Assembly: GCA_002256025.1 (NCBI GenBank)
Contig: NKIB01015270.1
Coordinates: forward strand, 1-36,847
Length of the DNA: 36,847 nt
Origin: Asterionella formosa
Lineage: Eukaryota
Reading direction: 5' to 3'
Under the pieces are notes generated by a model. The model made no database searches, was not told where the DNA came from, and saw nothing but the letters and a program-made list of their open reading frames with translations. The translations under genes were made by a program, and so were the position numbers. Shown one piece after another: positions 19,262-30,259 of this stretch. The stretch's first letter is position 1, and each line of letters opens with the position of its first letter.

Positions 19262-22200
19262 CTATTTGCTGGTTAATGGTCGGACACCAGTCCAACTAGG
19301 GGGGCAAATTCCGTTGCGTTTTTCCATGTAGGCCACTAGAACCTTGCATGTACCATCGCCCAACTCGTTTCTTATTCGTACAACCTCATCATTGCTATGA
19401 TGTCGGTCAAAAATCCGCCCATCGATGTCGTTAGGGTTATAGTCGATGTATCCTTCTTCAAGCACTGTTGTAATCATTATTTCGTCTGCTTCCTGCAGAG
19501 CTATGATCGCTTCCTTCCAGTCGCCATGAAGGTACGCTTTGCTACCTTCCCTGAACTTTCTCTCAAAGTCTTCCGTGACATGCTGTCTCATGGCTCGGAG
19601 ATCTTGATCGCTTTCCCACACCAATGGAGTGTACGCTTCTGCGTCAAGATCGGATTGCTCCGCAGAACGCTCAAACAAAAAGAAATCAACGCCTATGTTC
19701 CTAGCATCATACGTAAAGATCCGTTGAGCGACGCTGGATCCCTTTACAAAGACTGTGTCTAAATGGCGCAATTTATTCCGGGCCGGAGGAGAAAGGAGTT
19801 CCTCGACTGCTTGGCTGAGAAGGATGGTGACTCCATATTGTTTGGCTGCACTCATCATGCGGGATGCCATATTCACATGAGGGGAGAGGTACGTAGCATC
19901 GATCTTGTATTCACTGCCTACCGCACCTTCGACGGCCCAGCCAGCATCCATACCAATAACAATGCTGACCGTATACGCACCGACACCAGCTCCAAGGCGG
20001 AAGTCCTTCTTCCAGTTTTGAAGATTTCGATCACGATGGATACCAGCAAAGGATTTCAGCAAACCCAAAAGGGCGCGGTCAGAAAATGACTGGATACCCG
20101 GGAGCGACGCAAGTTGTAAAGTATCATCTCCACCGCCTCTAGAGCCTTTAATAACATTCACACCTCTACTTCCGTGATTGATTCCACGACTCCGGCGTTT
20201 CATGGTGTTCTTCTTTGCATTTCTCTTCTCCTTCGACCCAGAAAACAATACTTCCGTAGCTCGAGCCTTCTTTTCGTGTACTTCAGTGAAGTCACCAATG
20301 CGAAAGACCATCAAGAAAGCAGCACCAAGATTCTTGTTGCATTGGCCGCTATCGCCTAGAGCCCAACGAAAGACTTCGTCATGCACAACTTTAGCAACAT
20401 CGTTGATCAAAATCATAACATCCCGGTCGAGAGCACGCAATTGCTCGCTGAAGCCATTGATTGCAACAAAGCCAAAGAGTGCATACACACGCTTTCCTGG
20501 AACAGTTGGATTGAAAACAACAGTCTTTCCATCTTGAGTCCTAGCGAGGTTGGAGGAAATGATCCCGGCGCCTGCAACACCCCAACACTTTCGAAGAAGA
20601 TCAGCAATTTTAGAAATGGCATTGATAAGCTGTTCCGTTTCGTAGTTACCGAGTTGCGCTTTATCACCATCCTTATCAGGATCACTTTCACTCCCTTCGC
20701 CGCCAACTTCGCCGTCTCTCTTTTGCCTCTTATTTGACCTTGCAGTTGACGAGAGTGGATTTTGAGCATAACGAACTACGATCTTGAGCATTCTCTGGAG
20801 CGGATGCAAAACGAGACGACCAGCATCGCCGCGAAGGACCGTCAAACCAGTCAAACTGAGCAAAAGGATGCAAAATAATAGAATGAATGATGAAATGTTC
20901 GTAAACATAACTGCCTGGTTCTGGTTAACAAGAACCTTCACACTGAATGTAGCATTGGTCACTTCTTGCGAGCCATTGAACCATGTTAACGTGGTGGACT
21001 TTGTGTATTCCGAGATAGCTCCGACTGGTATGTCAAGTAGATCAGCGAAGAAATTCGGGGTTGCATTCGAAGGTGCTGCATTCCAAATTGCGCAGGCACC
21101 CACAACGACATCTGTATATTTGTCACATGACGATATCACACCGTCGTCGCTTTGGAAGTTACAGCGAACCGGAAGTACCTGCGCCCAAAGAATATAGGCA
21201 CCCTCGGAATAGTAGGTACCCTCCGTTGCAGGTGACAAAACCACCGCTGCCGCAGCTAGCCATGACTCGAAAGAATCCTGAAGGAATGCGCAACTGGTAT
21301 CGCTATTGTTTGTCACTAATTCACTAGTCGCTTGAAGAAAGCCAACAAATTCTGGTGCACTATTGTTGACACCGCTAATTGTCGAAATCATTGGCAAAAC
21401 TACGACAATAATTAACCTGTCGGGTCATTAGAAATGGCGTAAAATGAAAAATCAATGCAATCACTTTCAATACTTACAGAAGCAAAAGGGCGCGATGCGA
21501 GTTCACAACCATTAGAGCAGTACCGATAGTTGCCGCCTTTTTCAGACCCCTGTCATTCTCATAACTTGATTCGGACTTTCTCTCCGAGTTATCCTCTTCT
21601 CCTTGATGTATGTCCCCGACCTGAGCCTTTCGTTTCCTCGAGAAGTGTCGAGAAGTATAATATGGCTCATTCGGGTCATCAGAGCGGAAAAATTTTGGAA
21701 AATTTCCATTTTGTACCCTGTCATCGCGAAAGGTGTTGTTGATCCACATCTGCTTCCAATGACGAACAAGTCCGAAAATTCGCAATGTCCGCAACCCAAG
21801 AGCAAAGCGACCGACTGCGGAGTCCCACCTAGTAGGTCCAAGGACAGCGGACATCGAAACATCAATGCCAGAAAAATGAGTACGTGCGCCACAGGTCCTT
21901 CCATGTAAACACACAAAATCGGGAATATATAGAGCCAAAGCCACGATCTCAAACATAACGTGAAATGCACTGATATAACGGGCGGTAGATGGAGCGTATG
22001 CCTTGTCGGAAGCAATTAGTTCAAAATAATTTGAAGGCCGGATCACCAACTCCATCAAAAGCTCAAGGGCAAGCACCGTCCAGATACATCTGAGGAGAAT
22101 AACCAGTGTGAGTTGTTGACAAGCCCTGAGAATTATTCACAAAATAATCAACTTACGCCCCAAGCAAAGCAACCTCATCAAAGGAAGTGGAAGGAAAGAA

Positions 22201-23699
22201 TGCCAAGGTCGCAGTCTCAAGGAACAAGTAAATGAAACTACACATTACCAACAAGTTAATTCCAGTGCAACGTAAACTGCATGAAAAGGGTGAATCTCCA
22301 AATAGAAGAGAGGATGCAAGTTCCTTCAACTCGCTTCGGAACTTTCGGTAAAAAGGGACTAACTTATTCTTGCGGAAACGGATTGGCCAAGAAATGAAAG
22401 CAACCAACCGCTCAAAGCTCATGCTTTCCTTGTTCGTCTTTTTAACGTCAGCCATTGACCAACTTGTTTCGCGCGCGGCCCGCAATGCTGATTCGATTCC
22501 TTCTGGTGATTTGCATTGTTCCATCCAGGCTACGGCAAAATGTCAGGGAAAGGTTAGGCGCCATTTGTCCAATTTAAACAATCTGTAACACCAATAAATA
22601 ACCCACCTGTATCTGCCCTCTGCAAAGTACCAGTATCTGCTCTTGCAACTGTATAATATTTTATATCTTCGTCAAAATGCACTTTCTGCACTGTTGCCAA
22701 CACATATACAAAAGGGCCTTGCTGTTCCTCAAAGTTTCCGCCTTGACCTCGCGGATAACCAAATTTATTCACTGGTTGCACAGTAAAAGCTTCTTGGGGA
22801 TCTACAGAATTGGTATGGTTCATAATATTCAAAAACACCAGAACTTTTTCGCCTACAGCAAATTGCAAATTTGATAGGTTTTTGCTACCTGCACCGACAC
22901 CAGCAGCAACGACAGCCGCTGCCGCTGCAACGTTTTCCCATTCAGAGTTAGATGTTTGTCCCAAGCTCGAAAGTGCCGCGTCAAAAGAATCAAAATTCTG
23001 GGAAGAACTCTTCGAATGCCGATTTGAAATGCTATGAGAGGTTCTTCGACTGGCTTTTCGGCCCATCCCTATTTTCATAATCCCCGAACTGGCAGCTGAA
23101 AAATGTTCATTGTCATCCATCGAGAAATTTCCAGTTACGACTGGCTTGATATTGACGGATTTCCGCCGCACTGAGTTTTGTCGACTCAATCTTGAGTGCC
23201 CAGATCCTTCGTCGTCTGATTCTGACGCAGAAACAGTACCTCGTCGCTTGGCCATCTGAAGTGAGGGGTCTGAAGCGAAGGAGCCAGATCCGGCGCTGTA
23301 CAAAGAATTGAAACTACGTCTGGAAGCTGAGGATCGCCTCCTAGTTGGACCCGAAAAGGAGCTTCTCTTGGTAGCTCCTGCCGTAAGACTGGGGGTTGAT
23401 TCTTCACTCAAACTGTCAAAGTGACTTGAAATGTTGTAGTCCTGCGAGTTGTGGGACATGTTCTCGCTGATTTCCTCACGCGAATTCGCCCACTGAAACC
23501 CTCTGGAAGCTTTCACTTGTTCGTATTCTTCGTCTCCGAAGCTAGCGGCAGAAACGTCGTCATCGTCTCGGCAAAAGAGGACCGGAGGGTAATATGCATG
23601 GTCCATTGAACGGTCTTCCATGTCCTCCTCTTCTTCCTCTGTTATGTGTTCCATCCTGTCGAGAAGAGCATCACCTCCTTCGTCGAATGGAGATGACAT
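19262..23699 (-). CDS. Voltage-sensor/ion-channel-like 6TM domain fused to a class III adenylyl cyclase-like domain (alveolate AC-alpha type), 1410 aa; probable pseudo-cyclase
   Basis: Exons 23699-22607, 22529-22157, 22089-21478 and 21416-19262. All three introns are GT-AG and frame-preserving, giving 4233 nt. Motifs are an S4-like 'GRFALGLRTLRIFGLVRHWK', 'GWAVEGAVGSEYKIDATYLSPHVNMASRM', a TPR-like tail and the terminal 'WTGVRPLTSK'. Confidence 0.9.
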
Positions 23700-23989
23700 G
23701 CTATAAATGATGGTCTCTGGGTGTTACGGTATGTGTTCCGGTAATAATACCTTAGTATGGACAACCTGCAAGAACGCGGCTGCAGTGGTAGTCGCAATGC
23801 ATGTCGGCGACACATATATTATGGAGTGTGCCTGGAGCAATAATATGAATGGTAGTACTGGTAAGGCATACCTACTCTGTTGAAATTTGTGGCGCTTCAT
23901 CCTAGCGCGCTCCAGTACTGCCCTGAATGACCGGTCAAGATCGTTCTCGCGCCGCTCGTTTGCAAATTATTCTGCTATCATACAAGATA

Positions 23990-24900
23990 CCCTGGTACCA
24001 GGTACTGTCTGCCGAAATTTCCATTTAGACATTCCTCAGACTACATCTAGTCTTCGGACACCTGTCGACATCAGCAGCCTAACAGACAAATTCTGACAAT
24101 ACCACTCCTCCTCTGGTCGAAACCAAGGAAGCCAAACCTACATACCCGTATACCGTACTGGTACCTGGTACCTGGTTCCGGTACCATGTACCTATTATTC
24201 ACAAGCACATTACCGGTACGGTAGCCTACCCTTTTTTTACCACCAGGGTACCGCCTGGTAAAATACCGGGTTACCATCCTTACTTAAAACAAGGGGAAAG
24301 TCTTATGTAGTACCAGTATACCGGATCGTATACCGGTATTCTACGACCCCATGCTCTGCAGATGCATATCGTATTTTATCAGTCTCTGTTTATAATACCA
24401 GGTATACCGGTAGTACATTTGGTACAAGGTACCGGTACCAGTGCCGGTGTCAGGCAGTATCTTCATGCCGACAGGGAAGGTCCGGTAAAACACGTTGTTA
24501 ACTTATTTTTTAAGAAAAGATTTAGCAAAATATCGCGATTACAGGACCTTCCACAGAGGTGTCCGGAGTTTACGAAATATGTACCTTGTTACCGGTAGTA
24601 CCGGACATTCCAGGGCAGTAGGTCTACTGGCACGCGTTACATGGGAAGAAGCGCCATTCACTAATTTCGACATACCGGTATACACCGGTAGCTCATAACG
24701 GTGCGTACATAAGTAGGAATGTGATAGCTTGGTGTGCCTTAGTCATCAACAACTGTACGAGGTTTTACCTGGCACCGGTACCAGTGCCTGGTCCCTTGCA
24801 TAGGTAAACCAGGTAGTACCTGGTACCAGGTACCAGGTATCCAACCATTCCTGCTCTCAATCACTAAAACATGAAACAACAACATCAGTACGGTACATTT
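23990..24900. repeat. Densest cluster of TA-flanked micro-motifs (TACCGGTA/TACCAGGTA/TACCTGGTA) in the divergent promoter region
   Basis: Many overlapping motifs, e.g. 'gtagtacctggtaccaggtaccaggta'. Similar clusters lie at ~3715-4075, ~7820-8050, ~11240-11550, ~16170-16420, ~27700-27905 and ~36410-36680. Confidence 0.85.
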
Positions 24901-25098
24901 ACATAGTGGGTAAAGCAAGACGAAAGTCTGCCATCACCATTCAGCAAGAATCACCCCGTCAGCATGTCAGCATCATCAGACAAGAACGTAAGGGAAGAAG
25001 CGCAGAGCCAAGAAAAGACTCATGGCGATAACGGTCTCAATGGTGGGGTCAATAGCCAAGTGCCCGTTCCGCCTACTGAGAAATCCACCGCACGAAAG
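24625..25098 (+). repeat. Duplicated promoter + 5' coding segment, copy A (paralogous to ~27750-28178)
   Basis: 'gtgggtaaagcaagac(g/c)aaagtctgccatca...catcagacaagaacgtaa...ccaagtgcccgttccgcctactgag' is present in both copies. Confidence 0.9.
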
Positions 25099-26559
25099 AA
25101 AAGAAAACGCGCCAATGCCCCTTCCAAACTACAACCAGGCGACCAAGGCTATTTGACACCAACACAACTTCGGAATGCTCGTAAACGGCGTGCCAACAAA
25201 AAGACTACGACCATCACTACTAATAGTGACCCATCTGGAAAGTACTTAGGTAATCCGTTGGCAACTCCCATTTGTCAAACTGCCAAGGAATACTTCCGGG
25301 CCATCAACTCTAGTGGTACTTTTGACATTCATATCGGGCCGACCACAGAATGGAGAACTGTAGCCAAACTTGCCGTTCGAGGCAATCCACTTTCCATTGG
25401 GCTCTTTGCGCCAAAATCACATGAACTTGTTGCCGTTCCGGACTGCACTGCACATCATCAGGGCATCAATTCAACTGTCGCTCATCTTGAACAATGTTGT
25501 CATCGAGCAGGGGTCACTGCTTTTGATGAGACAACAGGCAAAGGAAATATTCGATTCGCTGCTATGAATGTGGAACGTGCGACTGGGAAAGTTCAACTCA
25601 CGATTGTTTGGAACAGTGAGCCGTATAACGTTGACAATGATTTCAGCAACAATGCTGATGCGCATGATGATGGGAAGAATCAATTAGAACGACTTGTACA
25701 AATGCTATGTCCAAAAACATCCACCTCCACTGCTACACCAAAACAACGACGAAGGGGGACCAAGAAGAAGCCATTATTGGAACAAACAGATGTGATTCAT
25801 GGTCAAGAAAACAAGGTGGAACTGCATTCACTTTGGATTCATTTCAACTCATCGTGGAAGCATTCCAACGCTATCTTCGCGATTGATGCTGGACCCAACA
25901 GTTGGAAACAAATATTTGGACCGCCTGCCATTGTAGAGCACCTGACCTTGGTGGGGCAACCCAGACCTGTTCCACTGCATTTTCCCCCAAATGTATTTCG
26001 ACAAGCAAATCTTGACGCATTTACCAAAATTGTTGCCAAAATTAGAACAAAAATATCAGAGTTCACTAATAACAACACCAACAAGATGACGCAAGAAACA
26101 TTCACATGTGTTGAACTTTATGGTGGAGTCGGTACCATTGGATTGAATGTGGCAGATCTGGTGACCACCTTGACTTCTTCAGACGAGAATCCATTCAATA
26201 AGGATTGTTTTGAGAAATCAGCAACTGAGGCAGGATTAATGTCCAGAGTTGGCTATGAATCCAAGAATGCAACAGATATGGTACTTGGAAAAAGAAATGG
26301 AGCTTTTCAACAGGCGAACATCATTCTGGTAGATCCACCTCGAAAGGGATTAGAGGAACCAGTATTGAACTCACTATGTTCATCGTCAATAAATGCGAAA
26401 TTGCTGGTATATGTAAGTTGTGGATTTGAAGCATTCAAGAGAGATTGTGGAGCCCTATTGGACTCTGGCAAATGGAGTTTAGACCAAGCAGAAGGTCATT
26501 TGCTCTTTCCAGGAAGTGATGCTATTGAAACCTTGGCCTTTTTTGTTGCTAAAAAATAG
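24964..26559 (+). CDS. TrmA/RlmD-family RNA (uracil-5)-methyltransferase, 531 aa
   Basis: Motifs 'FRQAN', SAM-binding 'ELYGGVGTIGL', 'VDPPRKG', catalytic Cys 'YVSC' and catalytic Glu 'FPGSDAIETLA'. Confidence 0.92.
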   Translation: MSASSDKNVREEAQSQEKTHGDNGLNGGVNSQVPVPPTEKSTARKKRKRANAPSKLQPGDQGYLTPTQLRNARKRRANKKTTTITTNSDPSGKYLGNPLATPICQTAKEYFRAINSSGTFDIHIGPTTEWRTVAKLAVRGNPLSIGLFAPKSHELVAVPDCTAHHQGINSTVAHLEQCCHRAGVTAFDETTGKGNIRFAAMNVERATGKVQLTIVWNSEPYNVDNDFSNNADAHDDGKNQLERLVQMLCPKTSTSTATPKQRRRGTKKKPLLEQTDVIHGQENKVELHSLWIHFNSSWKHSNAIFAIDAGPNSWKQIFGPPAIVEHLTLVGQPRPVPLHFPPNVFRQANLDAFTKIVAKIRTKISEFTNNNTNKMTQETFTCVELYGGVGTIGLNVADLVTTLTSSDENPFNKDCFEKSATEAGLMSRVGYESKNATDMVLGKRNGAFQQANIILVDPPRKGLEEPVLNSLCSSSINAKLLVYVSCGFEAFKRDCGALLDSGKWSLDQAEGHLLFPGSDAIETLAFFVAKK

Positions 26560-27749: not shown

Positions 27750-28178
27750 GTACTGGAGCGCGCTAGAAAGAAGCGCCATGCACGCAATCATATGTTACCG
27801 GTGCGTACATGTTGGAGAGTGATGGCTTGTGCCTTCTTCATCAAGTGTACGAGGAACCAGGGTACCCTAGTACCATGCAAACCTGGTACTGGTACCAGGT
27901 ACCCCTGTGACATCCCTGCTCTCTATCTCTCACATGAAGCCAGATCAGTTCGTTTACATGGTGGGTAAAGCAAGACCAAAGTCTGCCATCATCATTCAGC
28001 AAAAATCACCCTGTCAGCAGCATGTCGGCAGCATCAGACAAGAACGTAACGGAAGAAGCGCAGAGCCAGCTAGTAAAGATTGAAGAAAAGACTCATGGCG
28101 ACGACGATCTCGTTGGTAATGTCGATGGCCAAGTGCCCGTTCCGCCTACTGAGGAATCCACCGCCATTCCACGAAAGC
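27750..28178 (+). repeat. Duplicated promoter + 5' coding segment, copy B (paralogous to ~24625-25098)
   Basis: Same blocks as copy A. Encodes [16 protein letters not shown]...[12 protein letters not shown] versus MSASSDKNVREEAQSQ...[12 protein letters not shown] in copy A. Confidence 0.9.
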
Positions 28179-30259
28179 GCTCAATTCAGAACGACCCAGT
28201 CGTTGTTAATCCCGTCATTACCCCAACCACGATGGCGCTGACGCCAGGAACAGTGTATGGTTTGCCGGAGGGAGTGTTCATTCCAGCGACGATCCATGCT
28301 GATTTACTGCAAGGAAACTTGCTCACGTCCCTTAAAGATCTTCCCACACAACTCATCAAGGACGCATTGGCAGAGTACGATGATGCCATGACTCAAAAAT
28401 CTGGAGAAATTCGCAAGCATGGAGCATATTTATTTGGTGTCATTAAACGATACAAAGCAGTCGCAGAACGTGGGACTGATGGCCTTTGCATGGGACCGGA
28501 ATTGACGCCGTTGATTAACAGTAAATTGAACAAAATGCTCGAGGACGGATTTTGCACACAAGATGAAATGAATGACAAAGTGAAAAATAAAATTAAAATG
28601 TAAGACACTTCCGGCATGAGACCACCATGATGGTCAGATCGGTTCTGGATGCCTATTGGTAATGTCGTTTAACATTTTGTTTGGCATGTTACACAGGTTG
28701 AGCGAAAAAGATGCAATTTTTGCCATTGACGAGATTTCGGGTGTGAGCCGACCTCAAATTCGGGACTTTGGGTCTTATTTCATGGGGTATGTCTGTTGTG
28801 CTGACATATGCAGGGGAAATTGCTCGGAAGATGTGACTTTTGCTCACGTAACTGTTGATACATTTTTATAATTCAGGATTTTAAATCGTTATATGCGCGG
28901 TGATTGTGGACCAAGAGACAGCACGAGACAGAATTTTGGTCGTGAACGAGGCAGCAGTAATGGAAAATTTGTGAGTAATGCTTTGGGATATTTGTGTGAT
29001 TGGCTGCCAGATGTTGTTGCGATTTCGCCACTAATGACGTGATGAACGAAACTCAGGATCACAGAGGAGGTGAACGCAGCCATGGAAATCGCAGCAAGGG
29101 TCGTTCTTCAGACAAAAAAAATCATGATCACCACGATAGCCGAGGTCGTTCTCGTTATGGCAACAGTGATTCGTTTCATCGTGAAGACAGGGAGCGATCC
29201 AGAGACCGCCATGATGGCCAACGGGGTCCTCTTGGAAATCCACAGAATTTCCAGCATCAGTATGATCCTCGTCGTGCTTCTCAAATCGTTGGAGGAGTTC
29301 CGCCACCTCCTCCGTCACATCCTCCTTATGGGCAGCAGCAGCAGCAGCAGATGCAATTCAATCCTTATCAGCCACAGCCGCAGCAACAGCAACCACCTTC
29401 TTTTGGAATGCCGAATGGTGTCGTTCTTCCTTATCAGCAACAGCAACCACTTCATCAGTCTCCTCACCTCGCATTCGTACCTGACCAGCAGCAGCATCAA
29501 CCCCTTTACATGAATCAACCACATATGGCTCATCAACAACCATTGCCCCAGTTCATGATGGGACAGCAGGGGCCAACGATGACTACTTCTCAAATCATAC
29601 CACACAATAGCTGGCAACCGTCGTCTCAGCAACAGTCATCGGCACCTCCCGATATCATCGGTATTGCTGACAAGGCAGCACAAGCTTTGGCTGCTGCAAT
29701 GGGTCACCTCTCGTCTCAACCCCAACAATCTCCACTATTGTATGGCACGCCACAGCAGGGAATGCAGCAGCAGCAGCAGCAACAACATTATGGAGGGCCT
29801 ATATATCAACAAAACATGCAGCAACAGCAACCTAATTTGGAAATCAATGCCATGCAAGGAATGATGCAACCACAGCAACCACTTCAAATAAGGTCCAAGT
29901 CGTATAGCACCAACCAGCAACAAGTTATCCCACCCACAAAACGTCGTCACATAGTTGCTCAAATCCACGAATTATCCCTCAGCGTGCAACAAGCAGTTCA
30001 CAACTTGCATGCGACAGGCGCAATCGATGGGGCGCTGGATGAGGGCATTTTGGGCATGATTAAGGATCTTCCAGAACCTCTTGCCCTTCAGTCCTTGCAA
30101 AAGTTTTCTGCCATGGATCATTCCAGCATGAGAAGCAAAACGGTGAGTAAGATTTCCTTGGTTACCCTCATATTTCATTTCTTTCCCTCATAATTTTTTG
30201 CTCAGGCCTATCTCGCTGGTTTGCTACGGACCGAACTTTCAAAGATTCATAGACGCTGA
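28022..30259 (+). CDS. Protein with three hnRNP Q/SYNCRIP acidic-domain-like repeats, an R/D/S-rich segment and a Q/P-rich low-complexity region, 633 aa
   Basis: Exons 28022-28599, 28697-28786, 28877-28970, 29057-30142 and 30206-30259 (all GT-AG, 1902 nt, frame intact). The repeated motif reads '[15 protein letters not shown]', '[15 protein letters not shown]' and '[15 protein letters not shown]'. Confidence 0.8.
29332..29830 (+). repeat. CAG/CAA polyglutamine microsatellites within coding exon
   Basis: (CAG)n runs at ~29333-29350 and ~29765-29785, within a Q-rich exon. Confidence 0.85.

Follow-up and report, generated by a model that had tools for sequence, protein, structure and literature searches.

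Adenylyl cyclases of the ACalpha type, in which an ion channel is fused to the cyclase, are found in Plasmodium, Paramecium, and Tetrahymena (PMC5746546, PMC12414865; the papers cited here are represented by excerpts). All canonical catalytic residues of the members described in the excerpt of PMC5746546 are in a single chain. A 2025 review considers channel-like cyclases apparently restricted to protozoans (PMC12414865). Here we describe gene A, encoded on the minus strand of contig NKIB01015270.1 of the diatom Asterionella formosa (assembly GCA_002256025.1; the whole stretch analyzed, 36,847 nucleotides, is called the window). A is probably the C2-type half of a membrane-bound adenylyl cyclase of the ACalpha type that works as an obligate heterodimer, the other subunit being a paralogue, B. 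A second gene in the same genome that lacks the metal-binding Asp residues is called A2.

Like A, the alveolate ACalpha proteins have S1-S4-like helices, two more helices, a class III cyclase domain and a C-terminal helical region, and both have a specificity residue of the Ser/Thr type. Our ACalpha example was a putative adenylyl cyclase from Eimeria (P0359), homologous to A with a probability of 100% in the cyclase half and 97% in the membrane half. P0359 has both Asp, the Lys, Ser, Asn, and Arg together, whereas in A. formosa the set is divided over two genes and A does not have all catalytic residues in its one chain. ACalpha also has about six basic positions in S4 against three conserved in A, and has neither the N-terminal block of A nor the IQ-like motif of B.

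The mammalian soluble guanylyl cyclase GC-1 divides its residues as A and B do: of its alpha and beta genes, one gives the two Asp and a phosphate Arg while the other gives the Asn, Arg, and Lys together with the base pair (PMC6005667). It has one active and one pseudo-symmetric site, as we propose for A:B (PMC6005667). GC-1, however, is soluble, regulated by heme and nitric oxide, and GTP-specific (Glu-Cys), while A and B are predicted to be membrane-bound, have Lys-Thr, and appear to stem from their own duplication within the ACalpha family. An identical residue split, with 6+6 helices, is present in the C1/C2 domains of mammalian membrane adenylyl cyclases and in the P4-ATPase-guanylyl cyclases (P4GC) of alveolates and oomycetes, but there the halves are in a single polypeptide and the helices are without an S4 (PMC12414865). 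P4GC was not detected in diatoms according to the excerpt of PMC13466520. Fungal rhodopsin-guanylyl cyclases (NeoR with RGC1/2) are sensor-membrane cyclases that form obligate heterodimers after one duplication (PMC10622942). They have a light sensor and use GTP, and RGC1/2 retain all catalytic residues, so their need to pair does not come from residue complementation (PMC8815786). In the literature searched, subscription papers and supplements aside, we found no report that ACalpha-type cyclases are split or degenerate in diatoms or other ochrophytes. The excerpt of PMC5742204 does not mention cyclase, and literature matches to the gene names CYCp1/2 and tmAC1/2 were unrelated.

Catalytic residues of A and its paralogue B

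A preliminary description of the window had read Ala at both metal-aspartate sites of A, and this was borne out, with the codons exactly at 20464-20462 and 20323-20321. A1011 and A1058 align on both metal Asp of CyaB, and likewise in a profile alignment to the Eimeria ACalpha. The residues described as retained (K1054, D1199, N1208, and R1212) are all present. D1199, of the motif KIDA, had been taken as a specificity residue; alignments to CyaB and bPAC instead put Thr1201 at that position. T1201 is seven residues before N1208, matching the D1018/N1025 spacing in the position table of PMC6005667. The complete members of the family have Ser at the second specificity position in 25 of 25 cases, in a set partly defined by that residue. 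A Lys with an Asp or Thr is the base pair of adenylyl cyclases (PMC6005667), and A, as judged from its alignment, carries this adenylyl-type pair (K1054 and T1201) and not the guanylyl-type. Without two metal Asp in its chain A does not have the residues of a self-sufficient homodimer. It has those of a C2-type half, as K1054, T1201, N1208, R1212, and K1251 are kept while the residues replaced by A1011, A1058, and N1013 are lost.

To determine how general the Asp loss is, we compared the best 120 of 229 homologues of A, with residue counts taken from alignment columns. They comprise 97 long and 23 shorter forms, the long forms coming from pennate and centric diatoms, Triparma, and other records. 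None of the 97 long forms has Asp at either metal site. At the first site Ala is found in 59, Gly in 20, Thr in 8, Glu in 2, and other residues in 8. Position 1054 is Lys or Arg in 97/97, and in the covered columns the Thr (92/92), Asn (92/92), Arg (91/91), and VKG Lys (92/93) are nearly invariant. The 23 shorter forms retain the first Asp and all have Asn at the second site. Triparma (the P0101 cluster and P0098 from Triparma laevis) has both kinds of C2-type gene, long with both Asp lost and short with the first Asp kept and the second changed to Asn. A short C2-type gene was not found in the A. formosa genome with a protein query for which the top candidates were scored.

A2 (locus L036) is Asp-less as well. 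Over 270 core codons A and A2 differ at a saturated proportion of synonymous sites (pS 0.79) and a low proportion of nonsynonymous sites (pN 0.16). With the counts above, this speaks for conservation of the Asp loss, a check that the preliminary description had suggested. On these alignments the Asp loss is old and selected, not decay. The last exon of A2 is identical over 2271 bases on contigs C15187 (L036) and C15265 (L039), an allelic or duplicated assembly segment.

Searching the genome with A also returned B (loci L004/L035, contig C14145), which has two exons and encodes 1222 residues with the motifs FLFCDIRQF, NKNIGDAF, and SVERAEFLES. A paralogue retaining both Asp without the Asn and Arg, for which the preliminary description had proposed to look, is thus in the same genome. 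Its metal aspartates are D786 and D829, and its DIR Arg is R788. Among the best 120 of 1205 homologues of B, whose cyclase domains are 72-100% identical, all 120 have both Asp, the DIR Arg, the Lys, and the Thr, and all 120 have Glu in place of Asn. At the catalytic Arg position Arg is found in 0/120 (Phe in 92, Tyr in 25, and other residues in 3). VKGS, with its Lys, is lost in this clade.

The published table (Table 1 of PMC6005667) gives C1 as Asp, (Lys), Asp, Arg, (Asp), none, none, none, and C2 as none, Lys, none, none, Asp, Asn, Arg, Lys. At all eight positions A has the exact C2 pattern and B the exact C1 pattern, including the non-catalytic Lys and Thr that C1 keeps. The probability of this split by chance, about 0.003, was set aside as post hoc and concerning one evolutionary event. 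Beyond the table, 74 positions have a conservation of 90% or more among 25 complete representatives. A alone has lost 19 of these and B alone 12, with 6 gone from both and 37 from neither. The losses in A alone gather around the phosphate loop and D2 hairpin; those in B alone are SPHVN..R, VKGS, and WAIEG. The suggestion that A is a C2-type half gains support from the conserved Asp loss, the mirror-image paralogue, and the lack of conserved acidic residues in the metal columns.

Queried with four proteins (A, B, the Eimeria ACalpha, and one short A-type protein), the fragmented assembly gave the same four loci each time among the top candidates scored, namely A, A2, its identical copy, and B, with no complete ACalpha-type member among them. 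The genome also has sAC-like two-domain cyclases and guanylyl-type cyclases with a KVETIGD motif (L019/L023/L024 on contig C638, L020, L021, L032, and L037). Two of the sAC-like cyclases are in tandem on contig C638. Other PF00211 loci were set aside as partners, being guanylyl-type KVETIGD or self-contained sAC-like proteins. B is encoded and expressed: contigs skipping its 75-base intron were present in 4/4 of the RNA runs tested that also contain A, from three studies. Eight RNA runs contain half or more of the sampled words of A, with a maximum of 0.94; runs X11-X15, whose word shares are small, were left out.

Gene structure and membrane part

Gene A has four exons and a product of 1410 residues, with three GT-AG introns needed for an intact frame (Table 1). 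Use of a second donor site would yield 1415 residues. The preliminary description was right about the length of the intact frame; the gene starts at 23699, beyond its range of 19262..22529 and 1170 bp upstream of the end coordinate. Five independent 1410-residue proteins in the databases, whose contigs are up to 4.6-4.7 kb long, differ from our model by 3-12 residues. Such near-identical proteins support the splice model and fit with spliced transcripts.

Table 1. Features of gene A in the window.
Feature	Position	Strand	Description
Exon 1	22607..23699	-	residues 1-364; low-complexity N-terminus and conserved block
Conserved cytosolic block	22607..22862	-	residues ~280-365 (~85 residues), before S1; clade consensus, also Triparma P0098
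Exon 2	22157..22529	-	S1 helix ~22254-22198, start of S2
S1-S4 voltage-sensor-like domain	21753..22254	-	spans intron 2; from hhalign and column counts
Exon 3	21478..22089	-	end of S2, S3, S4, S4-S5 linker, start of S5
Transmembrane helices 5 and 6	20834..21491	-	residues 689-707 and 869-887 with a loop of ~160 residues between them; from hydropathy
Exon 4	19262..21416	-	end of S5, luminal/extracellular loop, S6, helical region, cyclase, C-terminal helices, stop
Class III cyclase domain, C2-type half (predicted)	19700..20497	-	PF00211; CyaB and bPAC alignments
Ala1011	20462..20464	-	codon GCA, motif ALFGFVAINGF; replaces metal Asp 1 (AC-V D396 position)
Asn1013	20456..20458	-	replaces DIR Arg (phosphate-binding, C1 side, Cya2 R450 position; Table 1 of PMC6005667)
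Lys1054	20333..20335	-	adenine specificity (K938 position), retained
Ala1058	20321..20323	-	codon GCT, motif NKNLGAAFL; replaces metal Asp 2 (D440 position)
Thr1201	19892..19894	-	D1018 position; second residue for base specificity, of the Thr type; retained
Asn1208 and Arg1212	19859..19873	-	N1025 and R1029 positions, retained
Lys1251 of VKG	19742..19744	-	K1065 position, retained; missing from partner clade B
C-terminal helical region	19262..19627	-	in common with ACalpha; PF26726 precomputed on homologues; boundary approximate

Membership in class III was indicated by a PF00211 match on the long A-type protein P0001 (E 9.5e-6; score 25.8 bits, cut-off 21.9). Compared with solved cyclases, the cyclase domain of A matched CyaB with an E of 0.001 and bPAC, using a profile, with an E of 2.5e-6. 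In the ESM Atlas the cyclase half fell with PF26726/PF00211 clusters. The conserved block ahead of S1 characterizes the long-form Asp-less clade, Triparma among its members. It had no match in a Pfam scan and may form a small beta-barrel.

Six hydrophobic peaks precede the cyclase in A. By hhalign, S1-S4 matched the N-termini of complete ACalpha-type proteins with a probability of 97% (E 4e-11) for A and 99% for B. The Eimeria ACalpha matches Ion_trans at positions 16-117 of 241, with the match of relatives likewise limited to the S1-S4 part and ending near position 117, and no direct Pfam Ion_trans match was found on P0001 and 11 other long A proteins. The ESM Atlas gave Ion_trans clusters for the membrane half of A solely below 0.9, a lead at most. 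A has the six-helix arrangement of the ACalpha type, with channel S1-S4 homology before the cyclase. It is not a voltage-gated K+ channel by its motifs, as a scan for a TxGYG-type K+ selectivity filter found none in A, B, or the Eimeria ACalpha.

The S4 of A reads R589-x-x-R592-x-x-G595-x-x-R598-x-x-K601, with only R592, R598, and K/R601 conserved. In 66 A proteins Arg is found at position 592 in 65 (Lys in the other) and at 598 in all 66, with K/R601 in 59 and Gly595 in 55. Counter-charges are also kept (E498 in 62/66 and E536 in 65/66). The earlier suggestion of a voltage-sensitive cyclase is only partly supported, as S4 is more basic in complete members than in A. Voltage sensing by A is possible. 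B has an IQ-like calmodulin-binding motif, ATKIQRAWR, between S4 and S5 (residues 425-435; about L035:4040-4070, minus strand), which is conserved in most listed homologues and scores below the Pfam cut-off. No such motif was seen in A.

Upstream of A, window positions 23900-24500 are rich in GGTACC/ACCGGT-like words. Similar words flank B and occur in unrelated RNA contigs, and they are possibly a small dispersed repeat. The window also has a local duplication, 24696-25091 and 27795-28163 being 74% identical over 414 bp. The plus-strand open reading frames there, 24964-26559 and 28022-28603, have similar N-termini and different bodies.

Origin of the C1-like and C2-like lineages

We built trees from a profile search (best 150 of 1744 proteins, E up to 1e-30). 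Rows without any scored catalytic column and P0354 were left out of the trees. A FastTree tree of 167 tips has a clade of 60 tips without the catalytic Arg (support 0.99) and another of 63 tips without the second Asp (support 1.0). Both stand beside complete forms including Eimeria and Tetraselmis. In an IQ-TREE analysis of 49 hand-picked tips, with the catalytic-motif columns removed, the C1-like and C2-like lineages are sisters (ultrafast bootstrap, UFBoot, 97) nested inside complete forms. The C1-like clade had a UFBoot of 99, and the C2-like clade 76, or 100 with P0313/P0319.

Named C1-like members include chrysophytes, Florenciella, and Chromulina, with Chromulina P0419 outside the trees. 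All 120 listed members of this C1-like group have both Asp, none of the 117 scored has the Arg, and 96 keep the Asn. The C2-like lineage includes an Ochromonadaceae strain and Triparma. The split had been placed in diatoms but is older than these, and both lineages are also present in chrysophytes. Named records of both A and B type come from Nitzschia inconspicua, Seminavis robusta, Fistulifera solaris, the SGILL assembly, and taxon 33649. We infer that an ancestral homodimeric ACalpha gene underwent a single duplication before diatoms and chrysophytes parted, after which the copies would have shed complementary halves of the active site by stepwise reciprocal loss. P0313/P0319, P0384/P0394/P0352, P0393/P0377, and P0373/P0375/P0398 do not belong to the two main clades and have losses of the C1-like or C2-like kind, hinting at additional independent splits.

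Proposed pairing of A with B, alternative readings and significance

Active sites of class III cyclases form between two domains (PMC8815786, PMC6005667), and with their complementary residues A:B would rebuild one complete site. A would contribute adenine recognition (K1054 and T1201) and the ribose/phosphate residues (N1208, R1212, and K1251). B would contribute the metal aspartates D786 and D829, plus R788 and the phosphate loop. The dimer would have one working Lys/Thr (ATP) site and a degenerate second Lys/Thr pocket that is a candidate allosteric site. An A:A dimer would be without metal sites, and B:B without the Asn, Arg, and Lys. The division of residues leads us to expect that A and B pair physically and that the pair synthesizes cyclic AMP (cAMP). 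With two A genes and one B, the inventory suggests two alternative complexes with a common B. The pair may be controlled by membrane potential, by Ca2+/calmodulin through the IQ-like motif of B, or by CO2/bicarbonate. Specificity residues of the Thr type have been linked to stimulation by inorganic carbon, as in CO2/bicarbonate-regulated cyclases.

Several points weigh against this pairing. Complementary loss shows selection on two halves but not contact between these two chains. At the beta4 position, which is Arg484 in C1 of AC-V and Lys in 52% of complete members, the residue of B is Gln, so B must rely on R788; an Arg two residues past the first Asp can act as the phosphate Arg (PMC6005667). 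The C2-like clade alone has the UFBoot of 76, and its sister pair P0313/P0319, with mixed losses, breaks the pattern. A was found in only 5/9 of the named B-bearing taxa among the matches listed. The assembly is fragmented (15,436 contigs) and only top candidates were scored, so a complete member could be missed. Co-expression of A and B refers to the same bulk samples, not the same cells. Lastly, given the self-contained sAC-like cyclases, the genome does not need the pair for its cAMP supply.

An unlikely alternative is that A and B, paired or apart, are nucleotide-binding pseudo-enzymes or sensors without meaningful cAMP production that signal by conformation or through protein partners. 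A is changed at 16 other near-fixed positions (e.g. H to D1183 and RLE to RMM), B is without the beta4 Arg, and other cyclases of the genome could provide cAMP. The union of A and B, however, restores every catalytic position of the published table, and retention of exactly one complete set between them over more than 200 sequences is unexpected for pseudo-enzymes.

It is improbable that B is an active homodimer through non-standard chemistry, with Glu and Phe/Tyr for the Asn and Arg, and A a mere inhibitory or scaffolding regulator. The high conservation of the B cyclase domain agrees with activity alone, as do its retained Lys, Thr, Asp pair, and DIR Arg, and the invariant Glu suggests a role over drift. 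Loss of the Asn is tolerated by some class III cyclases. B, however, has lost the Asn, Arg, and VKG Lys jointly, and a pure regulator need not keep the Asn, Arg, and K1251 at 99-100% as A does.

Activity of A alone with other acidic metal ligands is very unlikely. Six acidic positions (D1032, E1040, D1048, E1071, D1164, and D1183) are kept in the A clade but in neither B nor complete members, and one of the metal sites is Glu in 3/97 of the listed long forms. Alignment puts none of the six in the metal columns, where the A clade has no conserved acidic residue; the preliminary description had named acidic residues there as grounds for giving up the C2-type reading. By the known fold the six would be in helix 2, the following loop, after beta3, the helix3-beta4 loop, and the end of beta4, and the phosphate loop of A is also degenerate. 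Decay of A or an error of the assembly, to which the weak Pfam score of A might point, is almost certainly the wrong reading given the intact spliced frame, the near-identical database proteins, the RNA words, the same loss in 97 listed homologues, and the low pN at saturated pS.

Pairing of A with B as two halves of one cyclase would matter in several ways. The accepted messenger through which CO2 controls carbon-concentrating genes in diatoms is cAMP, and the excerpt of PMC11142338 names no cyclase behind it. A possible but doubtful extension is that ochrophytes have a two-gene C1/C2 cyclase, independent of that of animals and with a voltage-sensor-like domain in each subunit, in which a calmodulin-binding C1 and alternative C2 subunits integrate potential, Ca2+, and inorganic carbon as the source of the CO2-sensing cAMP of diatoms. 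If two genes share an ACalpha-type cyclase between them, tests by expression or complementation with one gene would fail, and annotating either gene alone as adenylate cyclase would mislead. The A/B pairing identifies the exact two genes for co-expression or knock-out. If A and B pair, the two-subunit cyclase in golden-brown algae is probably new and independently evolved. It would be an independent replay of the transition from homodimer to C1/C2 with intermediates still extant: chrysophyte and short bolidophyte/diatom forms have lost one Asp, and chrysophyte and dictyochophyte partners only the Arg.

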